A DNA stretch of 64,000 nt, taken from NCBI GenBank assembly GCA_900316125.1, contig ONBO01000003.1:418-64417 (forward strand), written 5' to 3'. Below, piece after piece: positions 42,110 to 59,796 of this stretch (the first letter of the stretch is position 1; the number at the start of each line of letters is the position of its first letter). Both the position numbers and the translations under genes were made by a program. The notes under the pieces were generated by a model that was given only the letters and a program-made list of their open reading frames with translations, was not told the origin of the DNA and ran no database searches. Origin of the DNA: an uncultured Bacteroidales bacterium. GTDB lineage: Bacteria; Bacteroidota; Bacteroidia; Bacteroidales; Paludibacteraceae.

Positions 42110-44968
42110 CTACTTAATTATCAGTTTAAATGTCTGTCTTATACTGTTTTCCGGCAGCATTAGTACCATGATGTACATACCAGCTGTCAGAGACAAGCTC
42201 ATCCGCTCAAAGTACTTGTCACTTCCTGCAAGGTTGAGCGTTTCAGCCACCTGAACACCTTTCACAAAATCACAGATGCGGATCTCTGCGTCAGACGCTT
42301 TGGACAGCTCCAGCGATACGGACACATTACCGTCTGACGGATTCGGTGATACGGAGAATCTTTTAATTGAGAGCCCCTCGTCATCATAATCACCAGCAAT
42401 AAACGGAGCGTCAACAACCTCCACTTTCTTGTAAACAGTCTCCTTGCAACCGTCATGATAGCTGCTCATACCCAGCATATACTCTCCTTCTTCGCTAAAC
42501 CTCATATCCAGATACCTATCTCCCTCCTCCACTATCTCTATTCCCGCATCTTGAGGATAGTGCCACTGGTATGAAGTAAAATTATCCCTTGTAATATTCG
42601 CTAGACGCACCAGGCCGTTCTTCTTGACGGTTGAGGCCACAATCCAGTCACAAGACACCTCTTTGGGTGACTTTATAACCTGCATGGTTGACGTGTCACT
42701 GCACAAACCGTCTGACGCTATTACCGAGTACAATCCGCCATCCGTTACATCTATTGAATCTCCATTAGTTAGATACTCATCACCACGATACCACTTGTAA
42801 ATATTTTCTGGAGCAGGCTTGTCAACTCCCACACGTACAGTCTGACCTTTGCAAACTGTTATCTCATCGGGGATACTCACCTCTATATTGCCATGCTGTG
42901 ACAAACTGACGTCCGTACTACTCGTACGGTTGGCAATATCTATTGCTGTGACGTTGTAGTCTCCAGCTCTAAGGTCTTGCAGTTTCAGCGTATGATTTTC
43001 AACCTTGTAATTCTCAGAGTCATCATTAGAACTGACAGTAACGGAATACGGCGGCTCCCCGCCGTCCAGACTGACGGATATCATACCGTCAGAATATCCA
43101 TAGCAAGTGACATTACGTTTGTCAAGGTTAAGCGCTATTGGTTGATGTATGTCAATCTCTGATGAACCAGTACAGCCATTATGGTCCATGACCTCAACAG
43201 TATAATGTCCTGATTGCAAACTGTTATTCACTACATACGAGGAGCTGAACGGATATGGAATAATAACGTCACCCTCCACCTCGGCGTCATCAGAGCGCCA
43301 ACTGACAGAATACGGAGCACACCCGCCGGTCACATGATTAAAATTCAGCACTCCGTCTGGTTTGCCATATTGTGTAGCGTCCACTCCGGACACACTGAAA
43401 TCCAGCGGCTCGTTTTCAAATATCTCTATGGTTTTGCCATACTGTGCCTGACATCCGTTGCCGTCAATGACCGATAGTGTGTATGACCCTGCGTCCAATC
43501 CTGAGAACTGAACCGCATTTGACTGACGGTTCTTGTATTCTCCTTTTACTGACTGAAGTGTTGCCGTATATCCGCCTTTTGCATTGAGTACGCTGTATGA
43601 AACGCTTCCGTCTTTAGCACCAAAACACGTTATGTCACTTTTCCCTACATTTGCAATTTCAAGAGCGGGTGGTGCCGCCGGCATCGTAACAACCGCACGG
43701 TGACGGGGTGCTCCTGCGTAATACTCATGAAAGTTTCCATTCGTATCAGTCCATCCGCCGCTTATTTCAACCTTGTAGGTTTCAGGTAAAATATCATTAA
43801 ATACAGTTACTGTACTCACATTTGTAGTATCACATATTGGTTTTTCACCATCCAAAGCATTATCCTTTTTTACAATCAAATTGATATTACCTGAAGAAGC
43901 AACCTCTTTGGATAGTTTAACAATCAATTTCCCTTTGTCTCCAGCACATTTAGGTTCCACAACCTCAACATCTATACCTGGAGCGGATAATACTGGTTCC
44001 AACGTAATTGAACCTTCTGATTTTTTACACACAACAGATTCATCCATATTAATATATATCTTATCTCCATCAACAATCATCTGTTTAAATTTTTCCTCAG
44101 AGAACAAATCATATCCGTCAAAAGACAAAAATGGAGCGAAATAATCATCGCCATACAGCATAAAGGCAGTCAAACTCTTGAATGATGATTTTTGTTCGTT
44201 ATGTGTTACTGTGAACTGTGGTTTATATATTCTCTCAGGAAAACCAGGCGTCATCTCAAAATAAACTTCATCCTCTGATGGTAAATTCATTGTAACTCTA
44301 GAATCAGAATTCAACTTATATTGCCAATCACTATCAAATGCATACATTAAAATTCTATTGGGAATTACTGTGAGTACACTCTTAAATGTGCATTTTATTC
44401 TTGCTCCATCATAATTATATTGGAAGGCACTCTTACAGTTATACCCTAAACTTTGGAGCTCAATATCGTTTATTTTCCTTTCATAAGTGAAGGCATTTAT
44501 CTCAATTGGAGTGCCAACTTTAAAAATGAAAGTTGTTTGATTGTTTACCGTTTCATTCCTCAACTCTCTGCAACTACTACTTATTTCAAATGCTCCATAA
44601 TACGACCGAGTTAGATTTATTACATTACCCTCTTTTAAATAATGATTACCTACTGTTGCTCTAACAGACGGGAATGACCTTGATGACTGATTAAATGTAG
44701 ATGATTGTTGAGTGCCGACACCCATAAATGTTTGATTTAGATTATATTTAAAAATGTTTGACTTTGAATTGTGAGATATCCACCCTCCGTTATATTCCTC
44801 AACATATTCAGTGTCAAACTTTATTACATACTCCCCAAACGGAATATCCACATCATCTGAAAAAGAACTCTCCATTGCACAGCATCCAATAGGAATGACA
44901 CACATTGCAATTATGAACGATACAACATGCAATTTAATGTTGCTCTTTATGTTTTTTAAGTTTCTCAT
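42110..44968 (-). CDS. SprB-repeat cell-surface protein with type A T9SS C-terminal sorting domain (operon gene 7)
   Basis: 952 aa. It has repeated C.G..DG.(I/V)......GG..PY motifs (ITCFGAKDGSVSYSV, VTCYGYSDGMISVSLDGGEPPYSV). The tail FSVSPNPSDGNVSV...GMYIMVLML...FKLIIK is CTD-like. Its start overlaps the gene 6 stop (TAATG). Confidence 0.75.
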   Translation of the reverse strand: MRNLKNIKSNIKLHVVSFIIAMCVIPIGCCAMESSFSDDVDIPFGEYVIKFDTEYVEEYNGGWISHNSKSNIFKYNLNQTFMGVGTQQSSTFNQSSRSFPSVRATVGNHYLKEGNVINLTRSYYGAFEISSSCRELRNETVNNQTTFIFKVGTPIEINAFTYERKINDIELQSLGYNCKSAFQYNYDGARIKCTFKSVLTVIPNRILMYAFDSDWQYKLNSDSRVTMNLPSEDEVYFEMTPGFPERIYKPQFTVTHNEQKSSFKSLTAFMLYGDDYFAPFLSFDGYDLFSEEKFKQMIVDGDKIYINMDESVVCKKSEGSITLEPVLSAPGIDVEVVEPKCAGDKGKLIVKLSKEVASSGNINLIVKKDNALDGEKPICDTTNVSTVTVFNDILPETYKVEISGGWTDTNGNFHEYYAGAPRHRAVVTMPAAPPALEIANVGKSDITCFGAKDGSVSYSVLNAKGGYTATLQSVKGEYKNRQSNAVQFSGLDAGSYTLSVIDGNGCQAQYGKTIEIFENEPLDFSVSGVDATQYGKPDGVLNFNHVTGGCAPYSVSWRSDDAEVEGDVIIPYPFSSSYVVNNSLQSGHYTVEVMDHNGCTGSSEIDIHQPIALNLDKRNVTCYGYSDGMISVSLDGGEPPYSVTVSSNDDSENYKVENHTLKLQDLRAGDYNVTAIDIANRTSSTDVSLSQHGNIEVSIPDEITVCKGQTVRVGVDKPAPENIYKWYRGDEYLTNGDSIDVTDGGLYSVIASDGLCSDTSTMQVIKSPKEVSCDWIVASTVKKNGLVRLANITRDNFTSYQWHYPQDAGIEIVEEGDRYLDMRFSEEGEYMLGMSSYHDGCKETVYKKVEVVDAPFIAGDYDDEGLSIKRFSVSPNPSDGNVSVSLELSKASDAEIRICDFVKGVQVAETLNLAGSDKYFERMSLSLTAGMYIMVLMLPENSIRQTFKLIIK

Positions 44969-46032
44969 TATTTTCCGGCTTCAATTACATTCACCAACTC
45001 GTTAATATTAACGGTTAAGTCAGGCGAACCATTCTTGTATTTCTCGTAAATATTATGAGAAAGGATTAAATCACACTTTTGCGGTTCTGGAACCCAATCC
45101 ACTAAAACAACTTCTAAATATTCCAAATTATCACACTCACTTAAATCAATTTTCCGAATCCCGTGACAGTTAGATAATGCCACATTTTTAACGTTTTTTG
45201 CATTTGACATGTTTAATTCTTTAATCGAGAATTTTTCTACCGATAGAGATGTTAACAATGGCATATCAAGTTTTTCAAAACCATATATTGTAGGACAAGT
45301 GGAAGAATTGGATGTTAACGCAATACCTTCTATTACTGATTCAGATGAAAAAATCAATCTTATATGATTAGCCGTACTATTGCAATTAATATAGTTTAAA
45401 TTAATGATTCTAAGTGCTTTATTTCGACTAAAATCAACTGGTCTATCATAATAATAGTCATACTCTTCATCATAATAATCGAGATCTATATAAGCATAAT
45501 AATTAATTTCAGACATAATAACCTTAACATTTTTCAACAAAGAGGCATCTGCCTGATACCACTTGTCAAGCATCTCTATTTTTGACATTTCATATTTTGA
45601 CATAATGCCGTCATTGTTCAAGTCAAGACCTTTACTTATGTAATATGAATCCCCTCCTGAAGGCAAGGTTACAAGTACAACCAATGTATCCTTATACACC
45701 TTCCCATTATTTTCACAATACAAAGAAACGTATGTGGGGTCACTGCTTAATGAGGTTATTTCACACTGTTCATTGACAGAAAGTACAGACGGGTCACACG
45801 GAGTGAATTTAATGTTATAATCTACTGGATTCTCTATCTTCTTATAATCCACATATATATCCGGCTTAATTACATCACCCACTTTGCATTTAATCACACG
45901 TGGCACAAATACTACCGTATTGTTAACTGGCAAGTATTTCTTTTGTGGAGTGTCATCCTTCTTCTCACACCCGCACAACAGCACAGCACCTGCCACTAAT
46001 AGAATAACTGCTCTTAAAATTGTTTTGTTCAT
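44968..46032 (-). CDS. Lipoprotein with Ig-like, EF-hand/dockerin-like and LRR-like segments (operon gene 6)
   Basis: I place the start at ATG 46032 (MNKTILRAVILLVAGAVLLCGC is a lipobox). The sequence has DLNNDGIMSKYEM and C-terminal LRR-like repeats (L..L.......I..L....). Confidence 0.6.
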   Translation of the reverse strand: MNKTILRAVILLVAGAVLLCGCEKKDDTPQKKYLPVNNTVVFVPRVIKCKVGDVIKPDIYVDYKKIENPVDYNIKFTPCDPSVLSVNEQCEITSLSSDPTYVSLYCENNGKVYKDTLVVLVTLPSGGDSYYISKGLDLNNDGIMSKYEMSKIEMLDKWYQADASLLKNVKVIMSEINYYAYIDLDYYDEEYDYYYDRPVDFSRNKALRIINLNYINCNSTANHIRLIFSSESVIEGIALTSNSSTCPTIYGFEKLDMPLLTSLSVEKFSIKELNMSNAKNVKNVALSNCHGIRKIDLSECDNLEYLEVVLVDWVPEPQKCDLILSHNIYEKYKNGSPDLTVNINELVNVIEAGK

Positions 46033-46060
46033 TTCTGTTTTGTTTTTATTTAGGTTAATA

Positions 46061-47278
46061 TTATTTGTTATCACTTTTATCCAATTGCTTTCCATTGAGG
46101 AACTGGTCAAACTCTGATTTGTGTACCCTGTAAAATTCTTTGTTTACGGTAATAGGCTTCTTGAAGATTTCAAGTTCATTCAACTTGTCGTTGCCGTAAA
46201 TAAACCGGTCTAGCAGATAAATCATCTCAACAAATCTGGATTCTACAGAACCCTTGTGTTTTTTCTTGTATTCCTCACTGTCAACAGGACAACCAAAGAC
46301 CATGTGCTTTAAGGCAGCAATATCTTCTATATTATCTGGGAATGGATTCAGTCTTCCTCCTGCAGCATCTAAAATAACCATTTCACAATAATACACGGTC
46401 TCTTCAGACGGTGAGCAAAACAACGTTTTTTCGCCATAGAATTTATTCTCCTCGTTTAACCTGACTATTATAACAAAGTCTTCACACTGCATAAAGAGAG
46501 ATCCGTCGATAAACTCATACCTGATGTTGTGTCTTTCCACAAATTCCTTAAAATAGAATTTCTCTTTATAAATTGACAAATTAACATACGGGCATATCAC
46601 CCCCTTTTTCTCCATCAAACTGAGAATGTCTGGGTCTGGATTTTTCAAATCAAGTTCATACACATCTTCCTTCCCTGTATATTCTTTTTTGAGCGATTTC
46701 TCTATATTGTCGGTTTTCAAATAACGGCGTCGAAGGATAATCTTTTCAATATATCGTTTAGGAATAAATGTATATGAATCATATCCGTCATAGTGGCTTC
46801 CCCCTGATTTTTCTATAACCTCGCTTTGCGGTATGGTCTTCAGTATCTCCTTCTGAATGTCTGTCAACTCCAGTGTGTAGCCTGAATGGGAAAGGATGAC
46901 ATATTCCGGGAATATCTCCGTCATACTCCACAAAAAACAATCTGCCTCCTTCTCAAACTTAACCTCGTATCCGTTTATAACCATTGTGACATAATAGTCG
47001 TAAAAAGCCTCAACTTCTGACTTGCGGATTAAGTGGATAGGATACCAGTAGTCTTTATTATCATTGGACTTAGCCACATGGTCTGGTTTTACAACTACTG
47101 TACCTTTTCCATTATACCATCCGTCAGACAAGACCGATGAATTTTCAGCAAAGCGACACATATCAACAAATGTTACAGTCCCCACTCTTGCTTTTTTTTG
47201 TATCATTGGTCGGCATTCTCTACCATATATTAAAACAGAACCTCTATCATTAAATATATTATTAATAACAATATTCAT
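46061..47278 (-). CDS. Hypothetical cytoplasmic protein, 405 aa, no signal peptide (operon gene 5; immunity-protein candidate)
   Basis: An intact ORF starts 8 nt after the gene 4 stop. I recognise no motif. It is very AT-rich, like the 3' half of gene 4. Confidence 0.5.
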   Translation of the reverse strand: MNIVINNIFNDRGSVLIYGRECRPMIQKKARVGTVTFVDMCRFAENSSVLSDGWYNGKGTVVVKPDHVAKSNDNKDYWYPIHLIRKSEVEAFYDYYVTMVINGYEVKFEKEADCFLWSMTEIFPEYVILSHSGYTLELTDIQKEILKTIPQSEVIEKSGGSHYDGYDSYTFIPKRYIEKIILRRRYLKTDNIEKSLKKEYTGKEDVYELDLKNPDPDILSLMEKKGVICPYVNLSIYKEKFYFKEFVERHNIRYEFIDGSLFMQCEDFVIIVRLNEENKFYGEKTLFCSPSEETVYYCEMVILDAAGGRLNPFPDNIEDIAALKHMVFGCPVDSEEYKKKHKGSVESRFVEMIYLLDRFIYGNDKLNELEIFKKPITVNKEFYRVHKSEFDQFLNGKQLDKSDNK

Positions 47279-47286
47279 AATTCCAT

Positions 47287-50200
47287 TTACTTACTAATCC
47301 ATATTAATTTTTCGTTTACCTCTATCAATTCATATACATTCTCTACTACTCCATTAGCATTATATTGGGTAGCGGTTGCACCTTTCTGCAATGGGAATCT
47401 TACATCCTTTTCCCCAATATAGAACTCCGGAACAATCAAGTCCGTTTCCTTGTGACCTAAAACACCTGTATATGTCTGAGGCAGTTTTTTCTCTACATTA
47501 TTCAAATATTCCTTGGCTTCATACGGACGTTTAACATTTCTTACCATGTCGTCTGTCATTGTTGTCTCAATCTTAACATATCCAGTTGAATTAAGGAAAG
47601 GTGAATTATCATAATGCAAACCTATATCTACTATCAATTGACTTAATTCAACATTATTTAAACTGTAATCAGATGCTTTTAAAATACATCCATTGATTTC
47701 AGTTGAATTGTTTTTTATAAAACGATATTCAAATTTTACAGCTTCAACATATTTAACTACCTTCTCACCTGATTTAGGCAGTTCAAAGCATTTTTCAGAA
47801 ATTGCTCTGGTCAACATTACAAGTTCATCACTTGCATCCCCTGTGGAGGCAAGCCTGTTAATCTGGATAAGTTTACCTATATCATCATCGGTCAACCCCT
47901 CTTTTTTCAGAATATTACAAATGTTCTTGTTCACTTTTGTAATATCTACAGTTTCCAATCCTTCCCATGCTTTTAAAACCTTAGCGTCCACTTTTGCAAA
48001 AGAAGAGAGTCTCTTGTGCAAACTCAACTTTGAAGCGATATGTTCTGCTACCTTTGGCAACTGTTTAACAAAAACAGACCCTGCAACAATTGTTAATACA
48101 GATCTTGTTGTACCCCTGGAGCCTAAATTGCGTTTTCTTCCACCATCAGTTTCATTTAAGCCAAGTTCCCTATATTCATCCGACGTCAGTCCGGTTGCCT
48201 CCTCCAATGCAATGTCAGCAAGCAGTTTGAACAGCACACTCTTGTCTTCTCCTATGGCATCTGCAATGGCTGACAAAGATTGCCTTACCTCTTCTCTTTT
48301 TTCTTCGCTTACAACTAACTCATATCCCGTATAAACAATGGACGTGACATCCGTAACATCTCTTAGAGCGGCTTCTGATGTACCTGTAAGCAACCCTGGT
48401 AACTTTATTATACTTTCACTGTTGTCATTATATATTTTCTGCTGGAATTCACCGGTTTTTAATACTTCAGAAACCATTTCTATTCCAGATGCAGCGATTT
48501 TGAAAAAAGTTTCATTTCCCCTGACCTGAACCTGTTCCCCTCCTGGAAACTCGTCCTCTATATGATTCTTCGTCTTTTCAGACAAAGATGTTACGTTCTC
48601 TTCCTTAAGCCACTGGTTCGTACTCCTGCAAATCTCATCAGACAGTTCTCCGTAATTAACAACACCTATGTTTTGAGACTTGAAATTCTTGTTTATGCCA
48701 ACAACTTTTAGTTGCCATATTCCGTTTTTCTTGTAAATGCGAATCTTTGATTCTGATTCATCCCCAAGAATACCTTGCCTTATATCTTCATAAGTAACAT
48801 TATCTTGTTTAACAACTCCGTTATCTAGATAATATGCCTTTCCGTTGTAGAGAATCTCGAATTGTTGACCCTTTGATGCATATTCCGCCAGTTCTTTCAA
48901 TTGCCCGCTTACAAAATCAGAAAAACATTTTTCAACAATTGAAGTCAGTTCCTTGTTGTCTATAGAGGCATTCTCACATATATTTGAGACATTTGAAGAA
49001 GGGTCACACGCAGAGACAACAATTCCATTGTCAAGTATTACAACAGCATCAACAAAATCCTCTGAAATTACAAAATTAGCATTAGAAAAAAACTCTCTAT
49101 CTGTTATTTCAATAACCTTAGACCATTCTCCGTCTCTGCAACCATACGCTTTGTATGTTTCAACCACATCTATGCCTGTTTCTCTTCTATTGGCATCTGA
49201 ACCGCACTTTCTGATATATGCGTAATCATAACCGGCAAGCTGTTTCACCGCATCTCTAACCCATTCGCTATCCTCATCCTTCTCCCATAGTTCCGTTAGC
49301 AGGGCGGGATTGTGGATTTGGTTCCACTGCCACTTGGCTATGTGCGTGGCTCTGCTTGGTGTGGGGGCGTAGTCCATAAGGTTGTCTGTCTTTCCCTTTT
49401 TGCTCTCCGCTCCCTTTCCGTATTCGCTGTCAAACGTATGGCGCAGGCGGTATTTGCCGTGCCCGAGCTCGTGCGCTATTACAGCCGGCAGGTTTTCAGA
49501 CTTAACGGCGTCTGTGTTTATGTACCCGTACTGCTCGCCGCGCGGCATGAAGCCTGCAAGCTCCCTCTTGGAGCCTGAGCCGTTTGCCGGCATCATAAAC
49601 AGGTAGCACGTTTTGCCGTCATACCTGTCTCCAAGATATGTTTCAAACGCCCTGTTAAGGTTTTTCTGGCGAGAGTTGTAAAGTTCCAGAGCCTTGCTTT
49701 TGCTGTCAAACAGGTACGCTATGCTATCCTTTGGGTATGAGAATCCGTTCTCCTCCGTGACGTTCCACGTTACACCCACCCTGCCGTATATGGAGTTAAG
49801 CCCCGCCTCAATCTGGCTTGCGCTGTATGAACCGCCCAGATTAACCAGACACACACCTGCTCTCATTGGTGCGCGGGTGTCAACATCAAGCATACCTAAC
49901 TGGTAGCACCTGTCTCCCACCATGTAAACCGCATGGACGGTCTGGCGACTGTCTGCCTGTGAGGCGGCAACCGTTACGCTGTACGTCCCGTCTGCATTGT
50001 ACGTTGACGGCAGTACCGTAACACCGCCTTCATCTGAAACAATGAACTGGAGGTCCTCCGGCTTTGGTATCTCCTTCTTGCCTGAGCCTGTGAGCTTGAG
50101 CCTCGCTCGCACCTGCTCCGTGCAACCCTCTCCTATAAAGAGCCACGGCACGTCATAATACGGGTCACAGTTTGACATCCTGCGGTATATGCGCCCGCCG

Positions 50201-51876
50201 CCGTTGGCTCCGTCACTGTTGAGCAGCAGCGCTGCTGTCTCATAGAACTTCAGCGGTGAGTCAAATGTAAACACGCCGCTGTCGTCCTTCTCAAAGGTCA
50301 CGGTCCCAAGGTCTCCCCTTATCCCGCTCAGCTGGCTCTCGCTTATGTATTTGCCAGTCTGGCGCCCTAACGGTGTGAACTTGTACCTGCCTGTAGGTCT
50401 GCTGTCTGTGTCCGTCTCCTCCTCAATCTGAACCAGATTACCATCATTGTCCTTGACCCTTATAGGGAACACAGGCTCGCCCTGCTCGTTCCGAGGCGTT
50501 TCTATTGTGCCTATAACGCTCCCGTTCTCATCTTTAAGGGTAAGCGTTCCTGTGACGCTGTCATACTCAGCTCCGCTTACGTCTGTCAGGAGGAAACCAA
50601 CCGAAAGGTCTGGCAACACCACCCCGTTTTTGAGTCTCTTGCCACCGCCTTGCAGCAGCATGTCCGTGCCGCCTATCTGAGAGCCTGACATGTCACACCT
50701 GACTTCCGTATAGCCAGATATCAGCTGCCTGGATGCGTTCACCTGTATGTTCCTGATATCTACCGTGAAATCCACGCCTATGTACGGTATGAACATATAC
50801 CCCTCTCCGCTGAAGGTGGACCCGCTCTGCGTGAGCGATGTGACAACAACCTTAAAACCTCCGCCCACGGTTATGGTGTCTCCCACCTCCAGATGCTCCG
50901 CAGGGGTGAGGTCTGTCACCGTGTAGCTGTCCTCTCCGCAGCGTGATATGCGCTCAGGGCTCTTGTCAAAGGGGTCCCTGTCTTCTTTACGCTTGACCGT
51001 AACTGTGTCATGAACATCATACCCGTCCGGATGCCTGACATCAAATGTGAACACCTCACTGTAACCTCCGTTTGTAAAATGCACAGTGCCCTCCACGCTG
51101 TACGCCCTGACACACCAGCCGTAACGCTTACCCTCCTCCAGTTCAGGTTCTGACAGGGAGTACGTCAGGCTGGTGGATGCCGTCTCTGTCTGGTATATAG
51201 TCTGCGAGTAGTTATATGCTGACGTGGGGTTGGACAGCGTATCCGCTATCTCCTTGATGGTAATCTCATACATTACTCCGGCTCCTGAATAGCTGTGACG
51301 GGGCTGCCACTGCAGCTGGAAGGAACGTGCGCTCAGCGGACGCATGACTATGCCGTTCTTAGGATACAGCAGTGCTGGGGGCTTGTTTATTGTGAGGTTA
51401 GTGACTGTGGTGTACGGTGTGGAGACTACAACTCCCGTGTGATACTCCACTGCCTCAAATGTGAACGTGGCGAGACCTTCGGGCATCGCCCCCTGGAACA
51501 TGGTGCCTGTGACATCAAGATTGCGAAGCTCAAAGTACGGGGAGAGCTCTGCGGCGCCAAGGCGTTCTGACATACCTGGGTATAGCGTGACAGCCTCAAA
51601 CACGGCCGACGGCTTTGTCCTCAGCATTAGTCCGTTCTGACACTTGACGGTCATGCGAAGGCGAACATCAATGCCTGTACTCATCACATCACGGTTAACA
51701 AGCACAACTGTGGCTCGGTCTTCAAAGCCGCTCACATAGTCTGACAAGTACACTGACGGAGACGTAATCTGTGCGCTGACCTGTACAGGGAAGGATGATA
51801 CTCCCTGCGCAGACACACGCACAACATATAACAGTAGTGATAATGTTAATATTATTTGTTTACTGAATCCTTTCAT
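47287..51876 (-). CDS. Giant exported protein, 1529 aa: N-terminal Ig/Fn3-like region, metzincin-like HExxH domain and AT-rich C-terminal module (operon gene 4; polymorphic-toxin-like)
   Basis: It has a signal peptide (MKGFSKQIILTLSLLLYVVRVSAQG). HELGHGKYRLRHTF is encoded at about 49438-49473 and is followed by NLMDY. Its ATG directly abuts the gene 3 stop (TAAATG). Confidence 0.7.
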   Translation of the reverse strand: MKGFSKQIILTLSLLLYVVRVSAQGVSSFPVQVSAQITSPSVYLSDYVSGFEDRATVVLVNRDVMSTGIDVRLRMTVKCQNGLMLRTKPSAVFEAVTLYPGMSERLGAAELSPYFELRNLDVTGTMFQGAMPEGLATFTFEAVEYHTGVVVSTPYTTVTNLTINKPPALLYPKNGIVMRPLSARSFQLQWQPRHSYSGAGVMYEITIKEIADTLSNPTSAYNYSQTIYQTETASTSLTYSLSEPELEEGKRYGWCVRAYSVEGTVHFTNGGYSEVFTFDVRHPDGYDVHDTVTVKRKEDRDPFDKSPERISRCGEDSYTVTDLTPAEHLEVGDTITVGGGFKVVVTSLTQSGSTFSGEGYMFIPYIGVDFTVDIRNIQVNASRQLISGYTEVRCDMSGSQIGGTDMLLQGGGKRLKNGVVLPDLSVGFLLTDVSGAEYDSVTGTLTLKDENGSVIGTIETPRNEQGEPVFPIRVKDNDGNLVQIEEETDTDSRPTGRYKFTPLGRQTGKYISESQLSGIRGDLGTVTFEKDDSGVFTFDSPLKFYETAALLLNSDGANGGGRIYRRMSNCDPYYDVPWLFIGEGCTEQVRARLKLTGSGKKEIPKPEDLQFIVSDEGGVTVLPSTYNADGTYSVTVAASQADSRQTVHAVYMVGDRCYQLGMLDVDTRAPMRAGVCLVNLGGSYSASQIEAGLNSIYGRVGVTWNVTEENGFSYPKDSIAYLFDSKSKALELYNSRQKNLNRAFETYLGDRYDGKTCYLFMMPANGSGSKRELAGFMPRGEQYGYINTDAVKSENLPAVIAHELGHGKYRLRHTFDSEYGKGAESKKGKTDNLMDYAPTPSRATHIAKWQWNQIHNPALLTELWEKDEDSEWVRDAVKQLAGYDYAYIRKCGSDANRRETGIDVVETYKAYGCRDGEWSKVIEITDREFFSNANFVISEDFVDAVVILDNGIVVSACDPSSNVSNICENASIDNKELTSIVEKCFSDFVSGQLKELAEYASKGQQFEILYNGKAYYLDNGVVKQDNVTYEDIRQGILGDESESKIRIYKKNGIWQLKVVGINKNFKSQNIGVVNYGELSDEICRSTNQWLKEENVTSLSEKTKNHIEDEFPGGEQVQVRGNETFFKIAASGIEMVSEVLKTGEFQQKIYNDNSESIIKLPGLLTGTSEAALRDVTDVTSIVYTGYELVVSEEKREEVRQSLSAIADAIGEDKSVLFKLLADIALEEATGLTSDEYRELGLNETDGGRKRNLGSRGTTRSVLTIVAGSVFVKQLPKVAEHIASKLSLHKRLSSFAKVDAKVLKAWEGLETVDITKVNKNICNILKKEGLTDDDIGKLIQINRLASTGDASDELVMLTRAISEKCFELPKSGEKVVKYVEAVKFEYRFIKNNSTEINGCILKASDYSLNNVELSQLIVDIGLHYDNSPFLNSTGYVKIETTMTDDMVRNVKRPYEAKEYLNNVEKKLPQTYTGVLGHKETDLIVPEFYIGEKDVRFPLQKGATATQYNANGVVENVYELIEVNEKLIWISK

Positions 51877-56241: not shown

Positions 56242-57162
56242 CTATTTAATGTCAATTGGAGCCGTATAACCCACAGCTCCTGTATTGAGACGGTATTTAA
56301 TAAAATACGAATATTCAAGTCCGGGCTTGACATCTCGGTCAAGATATGACCTGTAATCTCCTGCAAGTATTTTAATGACCCTTACACCTGCTGAATCATG
56401 CCTGTACACTTCAAAACACTTAAAAGACTCCGTTGTCTTTGGTTTCCAAAGAATCCAGATGCCAATGCCAGGCTCCTTCTGCAGTTTAACAGAAATGTCT
56501 GACTTTTTCTGTGTGACAGCCTTGACTGCTACAGGTTGGGATTCTGATGATTTATTGCTACTGCTGTCAATTGCTGCTATTGAGTAGATGTATTTTGTAC
56601 CAAAATCTGAGTCATTGTCTGTGTATGACAGGCTGTCTTTGGGAATGTCTATGTAAACAGTGTCATTGAGGCTGTCTGTACGTCTCATCCTGTAAGTCTC
56701 AACATCATCTGGAGTGGCGCAAACCCACCTTAATGTAACACCGTCTTTTGTTGCATTAAATGATGTGAAGCATGGTGTCATTGGAGGTATGACATCTGGC
56801 TTTGACAGTCTCACAACCGCACTCTTATCTGATAGGTTGTACCTTTCATCTATGCCAGCAATGGCGTAACAGACACTGCGGTTAAGCATCTTTATGTTGA
56901 CAGTATCAACATAAGCTGTATCAGTTACAACTTCACTGTTGACTTGTATTAAGTGTCCGCCATCGATGTCTGACCTGTAAAGGCGGTAGCCCAATATGTC
57001 AGCATCTTTGTTGGCGTTCCAGCGCAGACGCACCACACCAGCGGTGTCTATCTCGCCTATCAAGCCTATTGGTACCATTGGAGGCACACTGTCTATAGTC
57101 TGGACAAGCACAGGCAGGGATAACTTACGGCTGCCGTCTTTGCCTACTGCGGCTATCTTCAA
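56242..57162 (-). CDS. Fn3-repeat protein, 306 aa; probably the C-terminal part of a split gene (operon gene 2)
   Basis: It has three units of the pattern D..PP..P.GL......G.V.L.W......D(I/V).GYR(L/M)YR....Y.Y.I.A(I/V)D..(S/G)N.S. It begins at TTG in the middle of an Fn3 domain and has no signal peptide. Confidence 0.5.
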   Translation of the reverse strand: MKIAAVGKDGSRKLSLPVLVQTIDSVPPMVPIGLIGEIDTAGVVRLRWNANKDADILGYRLYRSDIDGGHLIQVNSEVVTDTAYVDTVNIKMLNRSVCYAIAGIDERYNLSDKSAVVRLSKPDVIPPMTPCFTSFNATKDGVTLRWVCATPDDVETYRMRRTDSLNDTVYIDIPKDSLSYTDNDSDFGTKYIYSIAAIDSSSNKSSESQPVAVKAVTQKKSDISVKLQKEPGIGIWILWKPKTTESFKCFEVYRHDSAGVRVIKILAGDYRSYLDRDVKPGLEYSYFIKYRLNTGAVGYTAPIDIK

Positions 57163-57176
57163 ATAATTTGTAGGTT

Positions 57177-57300
57177 TTGTTATTGTTTGAACATCAGTTT
57201 CAGGTGGGCGATATCATAGAGATCGAGGGATACCGCGGCAGGGTTTTGGAGATCGGTGTGCGCTCCACAAGGCTGCTGGGCTCCGGCAATGCCGTAATCG
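57177..57300 (+). pseudogene. About 40-codon fragment of an MscS-family mechanosensitive channel gene, antisense to the operon
   Basis: The plus-strand translation LLFEHQFQVGDIIEIEGYRGRVLEIGVRSTRLLGSGNAVI fits the MscS beta-domain consensus (F..PF.VGD.I.I.G..G.V..I.LR.T.(L/I)....G..V.I). It is bounded upstream by TAG (57171-57173). No further channel sequence flanks it. Confidence 0.55.
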
Positions 57301-58151
57301 CCAAACACATCAATGCCTCTTATTTTATAGTGATATGTCTTATGGTTTGCGGCAAGTGAGTCAGGATAGGTGACAAAATCTTTGCCGTCAATATTCATCA
57401 GCGGTATGTCTGAAATAGGACTGAACGTTATTCCGTCTTCTGATTTCCGGATTTCAAATGATGTGTATTGTGTCTTAACGTCCTGGACATTCCATGTCAG
57501 CATCACAACTCTGTCTGAGAACCGTCCTTTGAAAAATGTAATTTTGGGTAAATTTTGTTGTAAAGAATCATCTATATAGACATAGCCGTATTTTATATCA
57601 CGGCAGATGACTGTGTCTGCTGGATATATACGGTACAGATAACTGCATCCTTTCTTAACATCGGAGTCTGTCATACCCCACCCTGCCATACACGCCGCCT
57701 CATAATCCATCTCTGACGCATACATGGAAGTCAGGAATCGCTGTTCCTGCTCCCTGCTGATATTCACTAATGCCGATATTGAGCCCTGGCTTTGACCGCC
57801 TACGCTGAACGAATCTCCATAAAGAGCCTGCGCAATTATGGCCGCATAATTGCTTCTCTTTGAGATTTGTTCCCAGTTATTCAATGGTTCAGCCTTAACA
57901 TGGCTGTTAAAAATTTGTTTGACTGGTGAATCAACAAGCTGTCCGTTCTCTTTTACGACATACCTTTCCACCATAAAACCGCACTCATTAGTGCGACGCC
58001 ATGACGAGGCATCACTTGCAGACCAACGAAGTTTCACTCCTACGTCAGAGAATTTACCCTTTACCGCTATATAGACGCTGTCTGACGCGTGAATCTTTAA
58101 AAGAGAAAATATTAATATACCTAAAAGTAGAGTAAAATTTTTCTTATACAT
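57180..58151 (-). CDS. Exported Fn3-containing protein, 323 aa; probably the N-terminal part of a split gene (operon gene 1)
   Basis: It has a signal peptide (MYKKNFTLLLGILIFSLLKIHA) and Fn3-like segments (VKLRWSAS, VMLTWNV...YHYKIRGIDVFGDYG). The last ~35 codons are the antisense reading of the MscS-like fragment. Confidence 0.6.
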   Translation of the reverse strand: MYKKNFTLLLGILIFSLLKIHASDSVYIAVKGKFSDVGVKLRWSASDASSWRRTNECGFMVERYVVKENGQLVDSPVKQIFNSHVKAEPLNNWEQISKRSNYAAIIAQALYGDSFSVGGQSQGSISALVNISREQEQRFLTSMYASEMDYEAACMAGWGMTDSDVKKGCSYLYRIYPADTVICRDIKYGYVYIDDSLQQNLPKITFFKGRFSDRVVMLTWNVQDVKTQYTSFEIRKSEDGITFSPISDIPLMNIDGKDFVTYPDSLAANHKTYHYKIRGIDVFGDYGIAGAQQPCGAHTDLQNPAAVSLDLYDIAHLKLMFKQ

Positions 58152-58190: not shown

Positions 58191-59735
58191 CTACACCGCC
58201 TTCCAGCTCTCTATGGTGCGGGATTCTGTGGAGAAGTTGACGCCAACCTTCAGGATGCGGCGTTTGTCAGCTGCGTATGGGTCTGCATAGTGCTTGTCTT
58301 CAATCTGCTTGAGCGCCTCGTCAGCAGACTTGTCAACCTTATACTCAATTATATAGACAGTGTTTGTAGTCTCAAGAATGGCGTCTGTACGACCTGCCGC
58401 AAACGGAACCTCTACCTTCATATTTTGCCCTAAAAGCGTAAGTATCAGATACATTATAGTCTGAAACGCAGGCTCCTTCTTATTCTCATAGTAATATGGT
58501 ATGGCGGCAATATATGCCTTTATATGTGTGAGTGCTGTATCTATATCATCAGCGTACAGTGCTTGAACCACACTTACAAGCATACTGTTACCCACTGCCA
58601 CAGGTATGTTTGACACAGTAGGCAGAAAGGCTTTCAAAAAGCCGTTCTTCACCTCTTTGTTTGGGAAACCTAAGGTATAGAGGTTTAGAATTGGATTATA
58701 TGATTTAATTGTAAGATAGCCACTCTGATAAAGGACAGGTAGCGCAGAACCAGCCACCTCCGGAGAGATGTTGAAATCATCCTCATTCACAACCTTGTTG
58801 TCAATATCCTGTAGCTCAGCTTTAAAGTGACGCATCTGCTCAAAAAGGAATGTAGGTGTGCCTGTGGAGTACCAATACTGGCCTATGCGCTTTGTAGCGA
58901 AAGCGTTTATCAGACTGAATGGATTAAACATATCTTCTGATTTGAACGAGAAATGATAACCATCATAATTCTCGGTCAGCTTATTTACAGCTTCATCATA
59001 ACTGCAACCCATGGAATCCGCCATAGACTGAATATCTGGTTTGCATTGCGAGAGAAGTTCACCTTTTGATATTCCGCAGATACCTGAATAATCAGACTCC
59101 ATGCTAATATCCATCAAATTGTTTATCTCACTAAATATGCTGAGTTGTGAGAACTTGGTTATGAAACCAAAGCGGAGCATTGCGTCACATATCTTGATTG
59201 GAGAATAGAAACTACGAAGCATCTCCCTTAGCTCATCAAAGACCTGCTTATTATGCACAACCTTTAATAATGCAGAATCATACTCGTCTATTAGCAGCAC
59301 CACTTTCTGACCTGTCTCAGCGTATGCTCGTTTTATGATGTTCTCAAGCCTCCTTCCTAATGATATAGAGTCATCCTCTTTGCCATATTGTTTTTCATAT
59401 ACGCCAAGCATGGAATCTATATTATTTCTCACTTCCACAGGATCCATTGACTTTATGGTACTCATGTCGAAACGGAGCACAGGATACTTAACCCACTCTT
59501 TTTCAAGAGCATCAAGAGCCAAACCTTTGAACAGTTCTTTCTTAGCTTCAAAATAGCATTGCAGCGTATCTACAAGCAGTGACTTTCCAAAACGGCGCGG
59601 ACGCCCCAGAAATACATAATTGAACTTATGTGTAATATTATACACAAACCTGGTTTTGTCTACATAAAACAAATCATTTAGCCTTATTTTGTCAAATGTG
59701 TATATTCCTACAGGGTACTCCTTAGTCTGATACAT
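58191..59735 (-). CDS. AAA-ATPase-like / PD-(D/E)XK nuclease family protein
   Basis: I place the start at ATG 59735 (MYQTKEYPVGIYTFDKIR...FYVDKT). It has a Walker A-like motif (GRPRRFGKS), a Walker B motif (VLLIDEYD) and a C-terminal PD-(D/E)XK-like motif (GRTDAILET...IIEYKVD). The -7 box TAATTTTG is at 59765-59772. Confidence 0.7.
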   Translation of the reverse strand: MYQTKEYPVGIYTFDKIRLNDLFYVDKTRFVYNITHKFNYVFLGRPRRFGKSLLVDTLQCYFEAKKELFKGLALDALEKEWVKYPVLRFDMSTIKSMDPVEVRNNIDSMLGVYEKQYGKEDDSISLGRRLENIIKRAYAETGQKVVLLIDEYDSALLKVVHNKQVFDELREMLRSFYSPIKICDAMLRFGFITKFSQLSIFSEINNLMDISMESDYSGICGISKGELLSQCKPDIQSMADSMGCSYDEAVNKLTENYDGYHFSFKSEDMFNPFSLINAFATKRIGQYWYSTGTPTFLFEQMRHFKAELQDIDNKVVNEDDFNISPEVAGSALPVLYQSGYLTIKSYNPILNLYTLGFPNKEVKNGFLKAFLPTVSNIPVAVGNSMLVSVVQALYADDIDTALTHIKAYIAAIPYYYENKKEPAFQTIMYLILTLLGQNMKVEVPFAAGRTDAILETTNTVYIIEYKVDKSADEALKQIEDKHYADPYAADKRRILKVGVNFSTESRTIESWKAV

Positions 59736-59796
59736 AATTGTGATTTTAAGTTTATTGTATTTTGCAAAATTACTAAATAACGAGCGCAAATGCAAA

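Follow-up and report, generated by a model that had tools for sequence, protein, structure and literature searches.

The question raised by this locus is what a large protein that joins a metalloprotease-like motif to a separate C-terminal domain does for the bacterium that makes it. The window examined here is a stretch of 64,000 nucleotides from contig ONBO01000003.1 of an uncultured Bacteroidales bacterium (assembly GCA_900316125.1, family Paludibacteraceae), and the protein is the product of its gene 4 (P0001; Table 1). An earlier note, made from the letters of the DNA, had described gene 4 as an atypical metzincin-like core followed by a domain with the motif spacing of an ADP-ribosyltransferase (ART), and all of the motifs on which it drew were located in gene 4 exactly where it had placed them. 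Comparison with related loci indicates that gene 4 is probably a polymorphic toxin and that gene 5, directly downstream, is its immunity gene. The gene 4 family represents a known general kind of bacterial weapon in a carrier family that is previously undescribed. Our literature search found no description of this carrier, of the two modules of its tail (module A and module B, below) or of the gene 5 family, and no member of the carrier family is named in the source databases.

A conserved head and exchangeable tails

The search for homologs of gene 4 returned eleven relatives. Four of these (P0007-P0010) share 96-97% identity with gene 4 over residues 1-871/882 and are unrelated to it thereafter, and five others (P0011-P0015) do the same at 58-68% identity over that head span. 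One relative, P0006, is collinear with gene 4 over the whole length. Every gene 4 allele diverges right after KWQWNQIHNPALLTE[LV]WE[KR]DEDSE[WL], a junction motif that reads ...KWQWNQIHNP...WEKDEDSEW in gene 4. Beyond this point Pfam recognized toxin domains in the tails of relatives, namely Endonuclea_NS_2 (E 1e-27), AHH (2e-11 and 8e-12) and NADase_NGA (8e-5). The gene downstream tracks the tail: a gene 5 homolog of 407 aa with 78.6% identity is found only beside the collinear allele, while an unrelated protein of 433 aa accompanies the P0007-type tail and one of 147 aa the NADase-like tail. The features by which polymorphic toxins are recognized (Zhang et al. 2012) were found together at these loci: a shared head with unrelated tails, toxin domains within those tails, a co-varying downstream gene, and orphan remnants with traces of recombination.

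The head itself is constant. Its predicted Sec signal peptide (Kyte-Doolittle 12-residue maximum of 2.8) contains no lipobox Cys on inspection of the sequence, and the N-terminal body that follows is beta-rich with FN3/Ig-like domains; Pfam placed an fn3 domain in 17 of 26 members of the gene 4 family. A search of PDB sequences with gene 4 alone matched nothing relevant, and the matches of the full family profile to PDB sequences were dominated by FN3. The Pfam scan of gene 4 gave no DUF4280, a domain that becomes relevant below.

A HMMER search with residues 877-1529 retrieved 77 representative proteins, which split the tail into two independent modules. The earlier note had set the last ~190 aa apart as a module of its own, and this was correct, with the independent domain (module B) covering residues ~1293-1529. 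Module A precedes it and occurs in ~50 large proteins, each time upstream of a different C-terminus; in P0025, for example, it is followed by an AHH nuclease. Module A had no match in Pfam, NCBIfam or PDB, and its profile drew only faint colicin/pyocin DNase matches from the PDB that are due to the C-termini of other members. By analogy with the bipartite C-terminal region of CdiA (CdiA-CT), we infer that module A serves as an entry or translocation unit.

Module B and its downstream partner

Module B is found at the C-terminal end of proteins that have nothing else in common. In P0062, P0082, P0096, P0097 and P0098 it is fused to DUF4280, and DUF4280-module B genes lie in VgrG-Tle1-DUF2931 islands at loci L006, L007, L009 and L010. 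DUF4280 is the PAAR-like spike tip of a non-canonical type VI secretion system (T6SS) (PMC5014421; PMC13402684). Since module B sits on PAAR-like DUF4280 effectors within T6SS islands, it would be a warhead that other bacteria fire by T6SS. A word-based homolog search with module B alone found 2 proteins and a profile query 7. A module B profile run over 400 genomes of the phylum found no additional module B, its other matches being to DUF4280 only, and the one thing that this profile matched among PDB sequences was the DUF4280 portion of a T6SS effector.

In each of the six complete contexts (the window, L001, L006, L008, L009 and L010), which include two delivery types, the gene that comes right after module B is a gene 5 homolog (E 1e-15 to 1e-31). 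This constant succession argues that module B and gene 5 constitute a toxin-immunity pair, and it supports the earlier note in treating the C-terminal region as a toxin-type domain with gene 5 as partner. The domain, which is mobile, measures ~240 aa. None of the gene 5 homologs has a signal peptide, a transmembrane segment or any other hydrophobic segment, and since they lack an export signal, the target of module B is probably cytoplasmic.

Searches of Pfam, NCBIfam and PADLOC with the tail, module A, module B, gene 5 and their homologs gave no match. AlphaFold nevertheless modeled module B with confidence from 11 sequences (pLDDT 87.3, pTM 0.84) as a four-helix lead-in and an alpha/beta core that ends in a beta-meander. 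A Foldseek comparison of this model with the PDB returned no match at E<=0.001, and the fold, as modeled, is absent from the PDB. Among ~20 homologs F1364, K1375, P1466, T1468, G1474, P1483 and E1484 are invariant and Y1422, F1427 and G1471 nearly so. K1375, E1484, T1468, Y1422 and D1417 are regarded, from the sequences, as candidate catalytic residues.

Several other activities were considered for module B. A PD-(D/E)xK or HNH nuclease was rejected on account of the lack of an invariant His and the wrong order of acidic and Lys residues, and a Cys protease on account of a Cys that is not conserved. A pore-former was likewise rejected, the domain being a soluble alpha/beta one with a soluble, cytoplasmic immunity protein.

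Two further arrangements were observed around these genes. At L008:1-5698 module B stands as a free-standing ORF of 320 aa (P0022). Ahead of it lie a further gene of the gene 4 type and an immunity gene whose relative accompanies the NADase-like allele; after it comes a protein of 502 aa in which two gene 5-type immunity domains are arranged in tandem. In the T6SS islands, a conserved gene of ~245 aa without a Pfam family is always directly upstream of the DUF4280-module B gene (L006:9255-9983, L007:6896-7630, L009:5158-5910 and L010:5245-5997), and it may encode an adaptor or chaperone.

The zincin-like site ahead of the junction

In each gene 4-type allele a zincin-like domain lies directly upstream of the junction, 50-70 residues ahead of it. 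Within gene 4, HELGHGKYRLRHTF covers residues 802-815 and NLMDY residues 832-836, and the three His codons were found at 49471-49473, 49459-49461 and 49438-49440, as the earlier note had it. The canonical metzincin motif is HExxHxxGxxH plus a downstream Met-turn. The motif of gene 4, HELGHGKYRLRH, departs from it, as the same note had rightly remarked, by a gap of six residues between the second and third His, which places the third His one residue further along, and by the absence of the canonical Gly, with Y809 at that (+3) position; the same departure is seen in all relatives. Alignment of the protease region from 10 genomes, down to 26% identity, showed H802, E803, H806, G807, L811, H813, F815, N832, L833, M834, Y836 and the following K..QW to be invariant, and since it is kept at this distance the motif is not a chance match. 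Its signature, AHE[LIVC][GA]HGxFxLxH[TP]F...NLMDY...[WY]QW, was seen again in distant metagenomic members of the family, and M834 is nearly invariant family-wide; the model, with pLDDT <50 past the HExxH helix, gives no confirmation of a turn below the zinc site.

Assignment of the domain to a family was attempted with profiles and with structure prediction. Pfam Peptidase_M57 scored 20.8 bits on gene 4 (E 3e-4) against a cut-off of 21, and 21.7-21.9 bits in the homologs P0007-9 and P0012. Reprolysin_4 (E 3e-3) and Reprolysin_5 (E 0.03) were below their cut-offs on gene 4 and reached 1.7e-4 in P0015 and 2e-4 in P0020, respectively, with Reprolysin_3 also weak in the family. The sole match of the protease-domain profile among PDB sequences was the M64 IgA protease (E 1.3), which has the same HExxHG..L..[D/H] spacing. 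An AlphaFold model of residues 601-912 was poor, with a pLDDT of 57 that fell to <50 past the HExxH helix, and from it Foldseek retrieved archaemetzincin 2x7m (probability 0.94, TMt 0.43), 3lmc and MMP7 amid unrelated, mostly noise matches. Gene 4 thus resembles the metzincins (M12 reprolysin, M43, M57) in its HExxH helix, third His and downstream Met, its HTF ending is similar to that of M43/M57, and it resembles the M64 IgA peptidase in spacing; unlike the metzincins, it has its third ligand one residue further (HExxHx6H), no Gly at +3 and scores at or below the cut-offs, with a weak fold assignment. Of the metalloprotease suggested in the earlier note, the conserved HExxH...H...Met zincin-type site just before the C-terminal module stands, while membership in a metzincin family stays borderline and the metalloprotease fold drew only weak archaemetzincin/MMP7 matches from the predicted structure. 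Judged from its sequence, the site is a conserved zincin site of the metzincin/M64-like type, and it is probably active since HExxH is fully conserved; the domain is called zincin/metzincin-like here, and its metzincin family is left undecided, with a borderline Pfam assignment and a poor model.

The earlier note had offered a processing protease for the C-terminal module as one alternative, and the position of the domain just ahead of the constant/variable junction fits this. If it works like the releasing peptidases known from other polymorphic toxins (PMC3482391), the gene 4 protease would release its own tail, a role to which we give somewhat better than even chances. The competing view, which we consider rather unlikely, is that the HExxH domain is not the releaser and instead acts as an accessory enzyme on the target envelope or on a partner protein, or as an inactive plug, with the tail freed by a different protease or delivered uncleaved. 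The cleavage site in gene 4 is indeed a predicted one, near residues 860-880, zincin domains do serve as toxins in some polymorphic toxins (PMC3482391), and P0025, P0026, P0033 and other proteins that combine module A with a toxin have no HExxH domain. The constant placement close to the junction in gene 4-type alleles speaks for a releasing role, as does a position shared with known releasing peptidases such as PVC-metallopeptidase (PMC3482391); in addition, the domain is part of the constant head, and no separate immunity gene goes with it.

Comparison of module B with ADP-ribosyltransferases

The earlier note had also seen in the last ~190 aa a weak resemblance to R-S-E ART toxins. On that reading R1385 would be the Arg, S1430/T1431 the S-T element and E1477-x-D1479 the acid pair. 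The three segments are present as claimed, FEYRF at residues 1382-1386, FLNSTGY at 1427-1433 and GHKETDLIVPEF at 1474-1485, with spacings of 45 and 47 aa. The residues in question, however, are not conserved among the ~20 homologs: R1385 is kept in 3/19, S1430 and T1431 in 3/21 each, E1477 in 5/15 and D1479 in 11/21. The strand-1 invariant of module B is a Lys rather than Arg or His, and the invariant K1375, T1468 and E1484 come without the second acidic partner that ExE/QxE would call for. None of 14 module B members matched an ART family of Pfam even at E<=10, the module B profile found no ART among PDB sequences, and hhalign against six Bacteroidota ADPrib_exo_Tox domains gave a probability of 0.3% and did not align E1484 with the ExE motif. 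These comparisons had limited sensitivity, given thin alignments and a PDB-only library.

Some observations do lean toward an ART. Among the few Foldseek matches that are not viral spikes, three are ARTs: pertussis S1 (7ski_B, the top match, E 0.11, TM 0.24-0.30), Vis toxin (4y1w, E 0.81) and CDTa (2wn8, E 0.86). The invariant E1484 directly precedes a beta strand, as the catalytic Glu does in ARTs, and a toxin that uses NAD would fit with an immunity protein in the cytoplasm. These matches fall short of the E threshold in spite of a confident model. Module B is not a recognizable R-S-E ART, the motif first noticed is, as far as sequence comparison can tell, no more than chance, and an ART activity of this type is considered very unlikely.

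The exchanged cassette and traces of recombination

Comparison of the window with the sister locus L003 by blastn placed a DNA breakpoint at 49265 and defined a cassette that is exchanged between strains. The sharp fall in GC content coincides with the segment that differs from L003, GC being 33-39% inside the cassette and 45-53% outside (Table 1).

Table 1 Features of gene 4 and of the exchanged cassette in the window
Feature	Residues or length	Position	Strand	GC	Remarks
Gene 4 (P0001)	1529 aa	47287..51876	-		Open ORF; probable exported polymorphic toxin
Predicted Sec signal peptide of gene 4	~1-23	51808..51876	-		...VRVSAQG; from sequence
FN3 domain of gene 4	172-267	51076..51363	-		Pfam fn3 E 9e-6, above cut-off
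Zincin/metzincin-like metallopeptidase domain	~689-851	49324..49812	-		Weak Pfam match and conserved motif
Zinc motif		49438-49473	-
NLMDY		49369-49383	-
Demarcation motif KWQWNQIHNPALLTELWEKDEDSEW	848-872	49261..49335	-		Last conserved stretch before alleles diverge
Cys-containing linker	873-975	48952..49260	-	38% (low)	Start of variable tail
Module A	~976-1292	48001..48951	-		Pre-toxin module upstream of many different C-terminal toxins
Module B	1293-1529	47290..48000	-		Helical lead-in (1293-1363) and alpha/beta core
Gene 5	405 aa	46061..47278	-	36.7%	Cytoplasmic; cognate immunity candidate; conserved core ~residues 75-230
Whole low-GC cassette		43675..49265	-		Gene 4 tail, gene 5, gene 6 and first ~431 codons of gene 7; blastn vs L003
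Constant part of gene 4				53.5%
Gene 4 tail				34-39%
Gene 6				33.3%
Gene 7, first 431 codons				34.7%
Gene 7, rest				45.8%

Exchange at a finer scale was apparent against L001. Gene 4 is ~65% identical to its L001 counterpart over residues 1-790, 95-100% identical from ~800 (at the HExxH motif) to ~1355, and 65-67% identical in the toxin core (1359-1458); past the core, identity is back at 92-100% and stays so into the beginning of gene 5, a gene that is patchy itself. The L001 alleles of module B and gene 5 are 75-79% identical to those of the window. An orphan copy of the window-type toxin core, 172 bp that are 97% identical to window positions 47639-47810, is present in L001 as well; it follows the immunity gene of that locus and lies next to a second copy of the gene 6 5' end. 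The interval concerned, L001:15785-16630, lies between the gene 5 and gene 6 homologs and contains the duplicated gene 6 end (an ORF of 57 aa), the 172-bp orphan and an extra ORF of 147 aa, elements that together look like a displaced orphan module.

The toxin was not swapped alone: the cassette also takes in, at window positions 43675-46110, gene 6, which encodes a lipoprotein, and the N-terminal part of gene 7. Gene 6 is only 43% identical to its L003 counterpart, and its lipobox (LLCG, then the Cys) is followed by EKKDD, a possible surface-export signal. Together with the N-terminus of gene 7 it could form a specificity or adaptor unit.

Operon, host genome and distribution

The ATG of gene 4 directly adjoins the stop codon of gene 3. 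Genes 1-2 encode an FN3 protein, gene 3 a product of 1451 aa, gene 7 a protein with SprB and Por_Secre_tail domains, that is, an SprB-repeat protein with a C-terminal domain (CTD) of the type IX secretion system (T9SS), and gene 8 a 560-aa barrel. The host genome assembly (2.07 Mb, 96% complete) contains GldK and SprA of the T9SS, and no VipB/TssC sheath gene was found in it. Contigs nearly identical to the window derive from metagenomes with record names (STEW19, XIEF21) that point to a probable rumen or gut source. Of the 301 genomes sampled from the order, 43 (in 37 of 209 genera) contain the constant part of gene 4, frequently with more than one copy. In distant genomes homologs of gene 4 again lie beside homologs of gene 3, of the FN3 gene (genes 1-2), of the SprB/CTD gene (gene 7) and of the barrel gene (gene 8), in shuffled order.

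Proposed mechanism and the points against it

These results are best accommodated if gene 4 provides the toxin of a polymorphic toxin system in a T9SS-bearing Bacteroidota bacterium, probably of gut or rumen, and we regard this as likely. In such a system, the protein would be exported by Sec and then displayed on the surface with the aid of the FN3 protein, the gene 3 product, the SprB-repeat/T9SS-CTD protein and the 560-aa barrel. The zinc-protease domain would cut the chain near the junction and free the tail, and module A would bring the toxin into a neighboring bacterium. There module B would act on a cytoplasmic target through K1375 and E1484, and probably also T1468, Y1422 and D1417. 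The gene 5 protein would bind and neutralize module B in the producer and its kin.

Several points weigh against this picture. That the protein is toxic, that gene 5 confers immunity, that the chain cuts itself, and how it is exported and enters the target are all inferred, and no recognizable fold or catalytic motif was detected in module B. Gene 4 itself lacks a T9SS C-terminal sorting domain, and the co-occurrence of gene 4 with a T9SS is uninformative because the T9SS is near-universal in the order (SprA in 287 of the 301 genomes). The protease domain is only marginal at Pfam cut-offs and AlphaFold left its C-terminal half unfolded; moreover, since several carriers of module A lack an HExxH domain, release by such a protease is not a general requirement. 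A simple toxin-immunity model also does not explain the presence of gene 6 and the gene 7 N-terminus inside the swapped cassette.

A more specific reading takes the operon as a dedicated, undescribed T9SS-linked system for contact-dependent toxin delivery, a sibling of the TANFOR class composed of the FN3 protein, the 1451-aa gene 3 product, gene 4, the surface lipoprotein, the SprB/T9SS-CTD protein and the 560-aa barrel. Gene 4 would then supply a metzincin-like cutter, an entry module and a toxin whose fold is absent from the PDB, and specificity for targets or kin would reside in the lipoprotein and the SprB N-terminus that are swapped along with the toxin. We put this forward tentatively, as a possibility short of even chances. 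That gene 4 is chiefly a secreted or surface zinc protease or adhesin, with a tail serving antigenic or substrate-binding variation and gene 5 an unrelated neighbor, would suit the fully conserved HExxH site, an FN3/Ig-like body as found in surface proteins and the SprB-repeat T9SS cargo of the operon, but it is highly improbable given nucleases and an NADase-like domain at the C-termini of relatives, module B on PAAR-like T6SS effectors, a gene 5 homolog after module B in six of six unrelated contexts, and the existence of orphan toxin and immunity remnants.

Relation to described toxin systems

The closest described class to gene 4 is that of the TANFOR toxins, polymorphic toxins of Bacteroidetes for which an export route linked to the T9SS was put forward without being demonstrated (Jana, Salomon & Bosis 2020, PMC7073777). 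Like gene 4, these are large Sec-exported Bacteroidota proteins with diverse C-terminal toxins (AHH, other nucleases, NADase/TNT) and an immunity gene downstream. Their neighborhoods, like that of gene 4 in its T9SS-positive genome, are enriched in SprB-repeat, Fn3 and T9SS-CTD (Por_Secre_tail) proteins (PMC7073777). Gene 4 differs in having no TANFOR domain, a zincin-like domain at the junction, another demarcation motif and module A. The NCBIfam model of TANFOR (TIGR02542) gave no match in gene 4 or gene 3 at E<=0.1 and none genome-wide, and it matched none of the control genomes either.

With CdiA and the Rhs/YD toxins (Zhang et al. 2012, PMC3482391) gene 4 shares a constant delivery body, a short demarcation motif (theirs being VENN and PxxxxDPxGL), a swappable tail, an immunity gene directly downstream, orphan modules and a drop in GC. 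Its bipartite tail of a putative entry domain and a toxin domain is further like that of CdiA. Unlike these proteins, gene 4 has neither TPS/FHA nor Rhs/YD repeats and no TpsB transporter, its motif is ...WEKDEDSEW, and the phylum and the putative export route are different. PVC-metallopeptidase (PMC3482391) offers a parallel for the protease, as a zincin HExxH domain just N-terminal to the toxin region for which autoproteolytic release has been proposed; the PVC type, however, is HExxHxxQ...E and belongs to contractile injection systems, whereas gene 4 has HExxHGx5H with a conserved Met and is metzincin/M64-like. The DUF4280 T6SS effectors (PMC5014421), including Bacteroides Pte3 (PMC13402684), use the same module B toxin with a gene 5-type immunity gene. 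In contrast to them, gene 4 is without DUF4280 and its host genome without TssC, so that the same warhead rides on a different carrier.

Bacteroidota dominate gut and rumen communities. To our knowledge, the contact-dependent weapons described from them are essentially T6SS, and for a toxin route linked to the T9SS there is no more than a proposal, on TANFOR proteins. The gene 4 family adds a second carrier family that is widespread in the order and keeps the same kind of partners, and its locus combines a well-defined junction motif and a protease that may release the tail by self-cleavage. As a candidate toxin-immunity pair, module B and gene 5 are clean: they have no Pfam family and no structural neighbor, and T6SS effectors use them as well. 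Polymorphic toxins as a kind are already known; what is new is the carrier with its junction, and the toxin/immunity pair with a toxin fold that is not represented in the PDB. The locus therefore gives a handle on how T9SS-bearing bacteria deliver toxins into their neighbors, and the pair is directly testable in E. coli.

Other genes of the window

Two observations concern other genes of the window. ORFs of 323 and 306 aa at window positions 56242-58151 are the halves of one FN3-rich gene of 677 aa that is intact in L001 and L003. The break falls at 57193-57292, where 99 bp of the window do not align with 223 bp of the relatives, and it reflects either a disrupted gene or an assembly fault of the metagenome-assembled genome. 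Directly upstream of the operon, at 58191-59795, lies a gene with AAA-ATPase_like and PDDEXK_9 domains whose position is kept in L001, L003 and L004.

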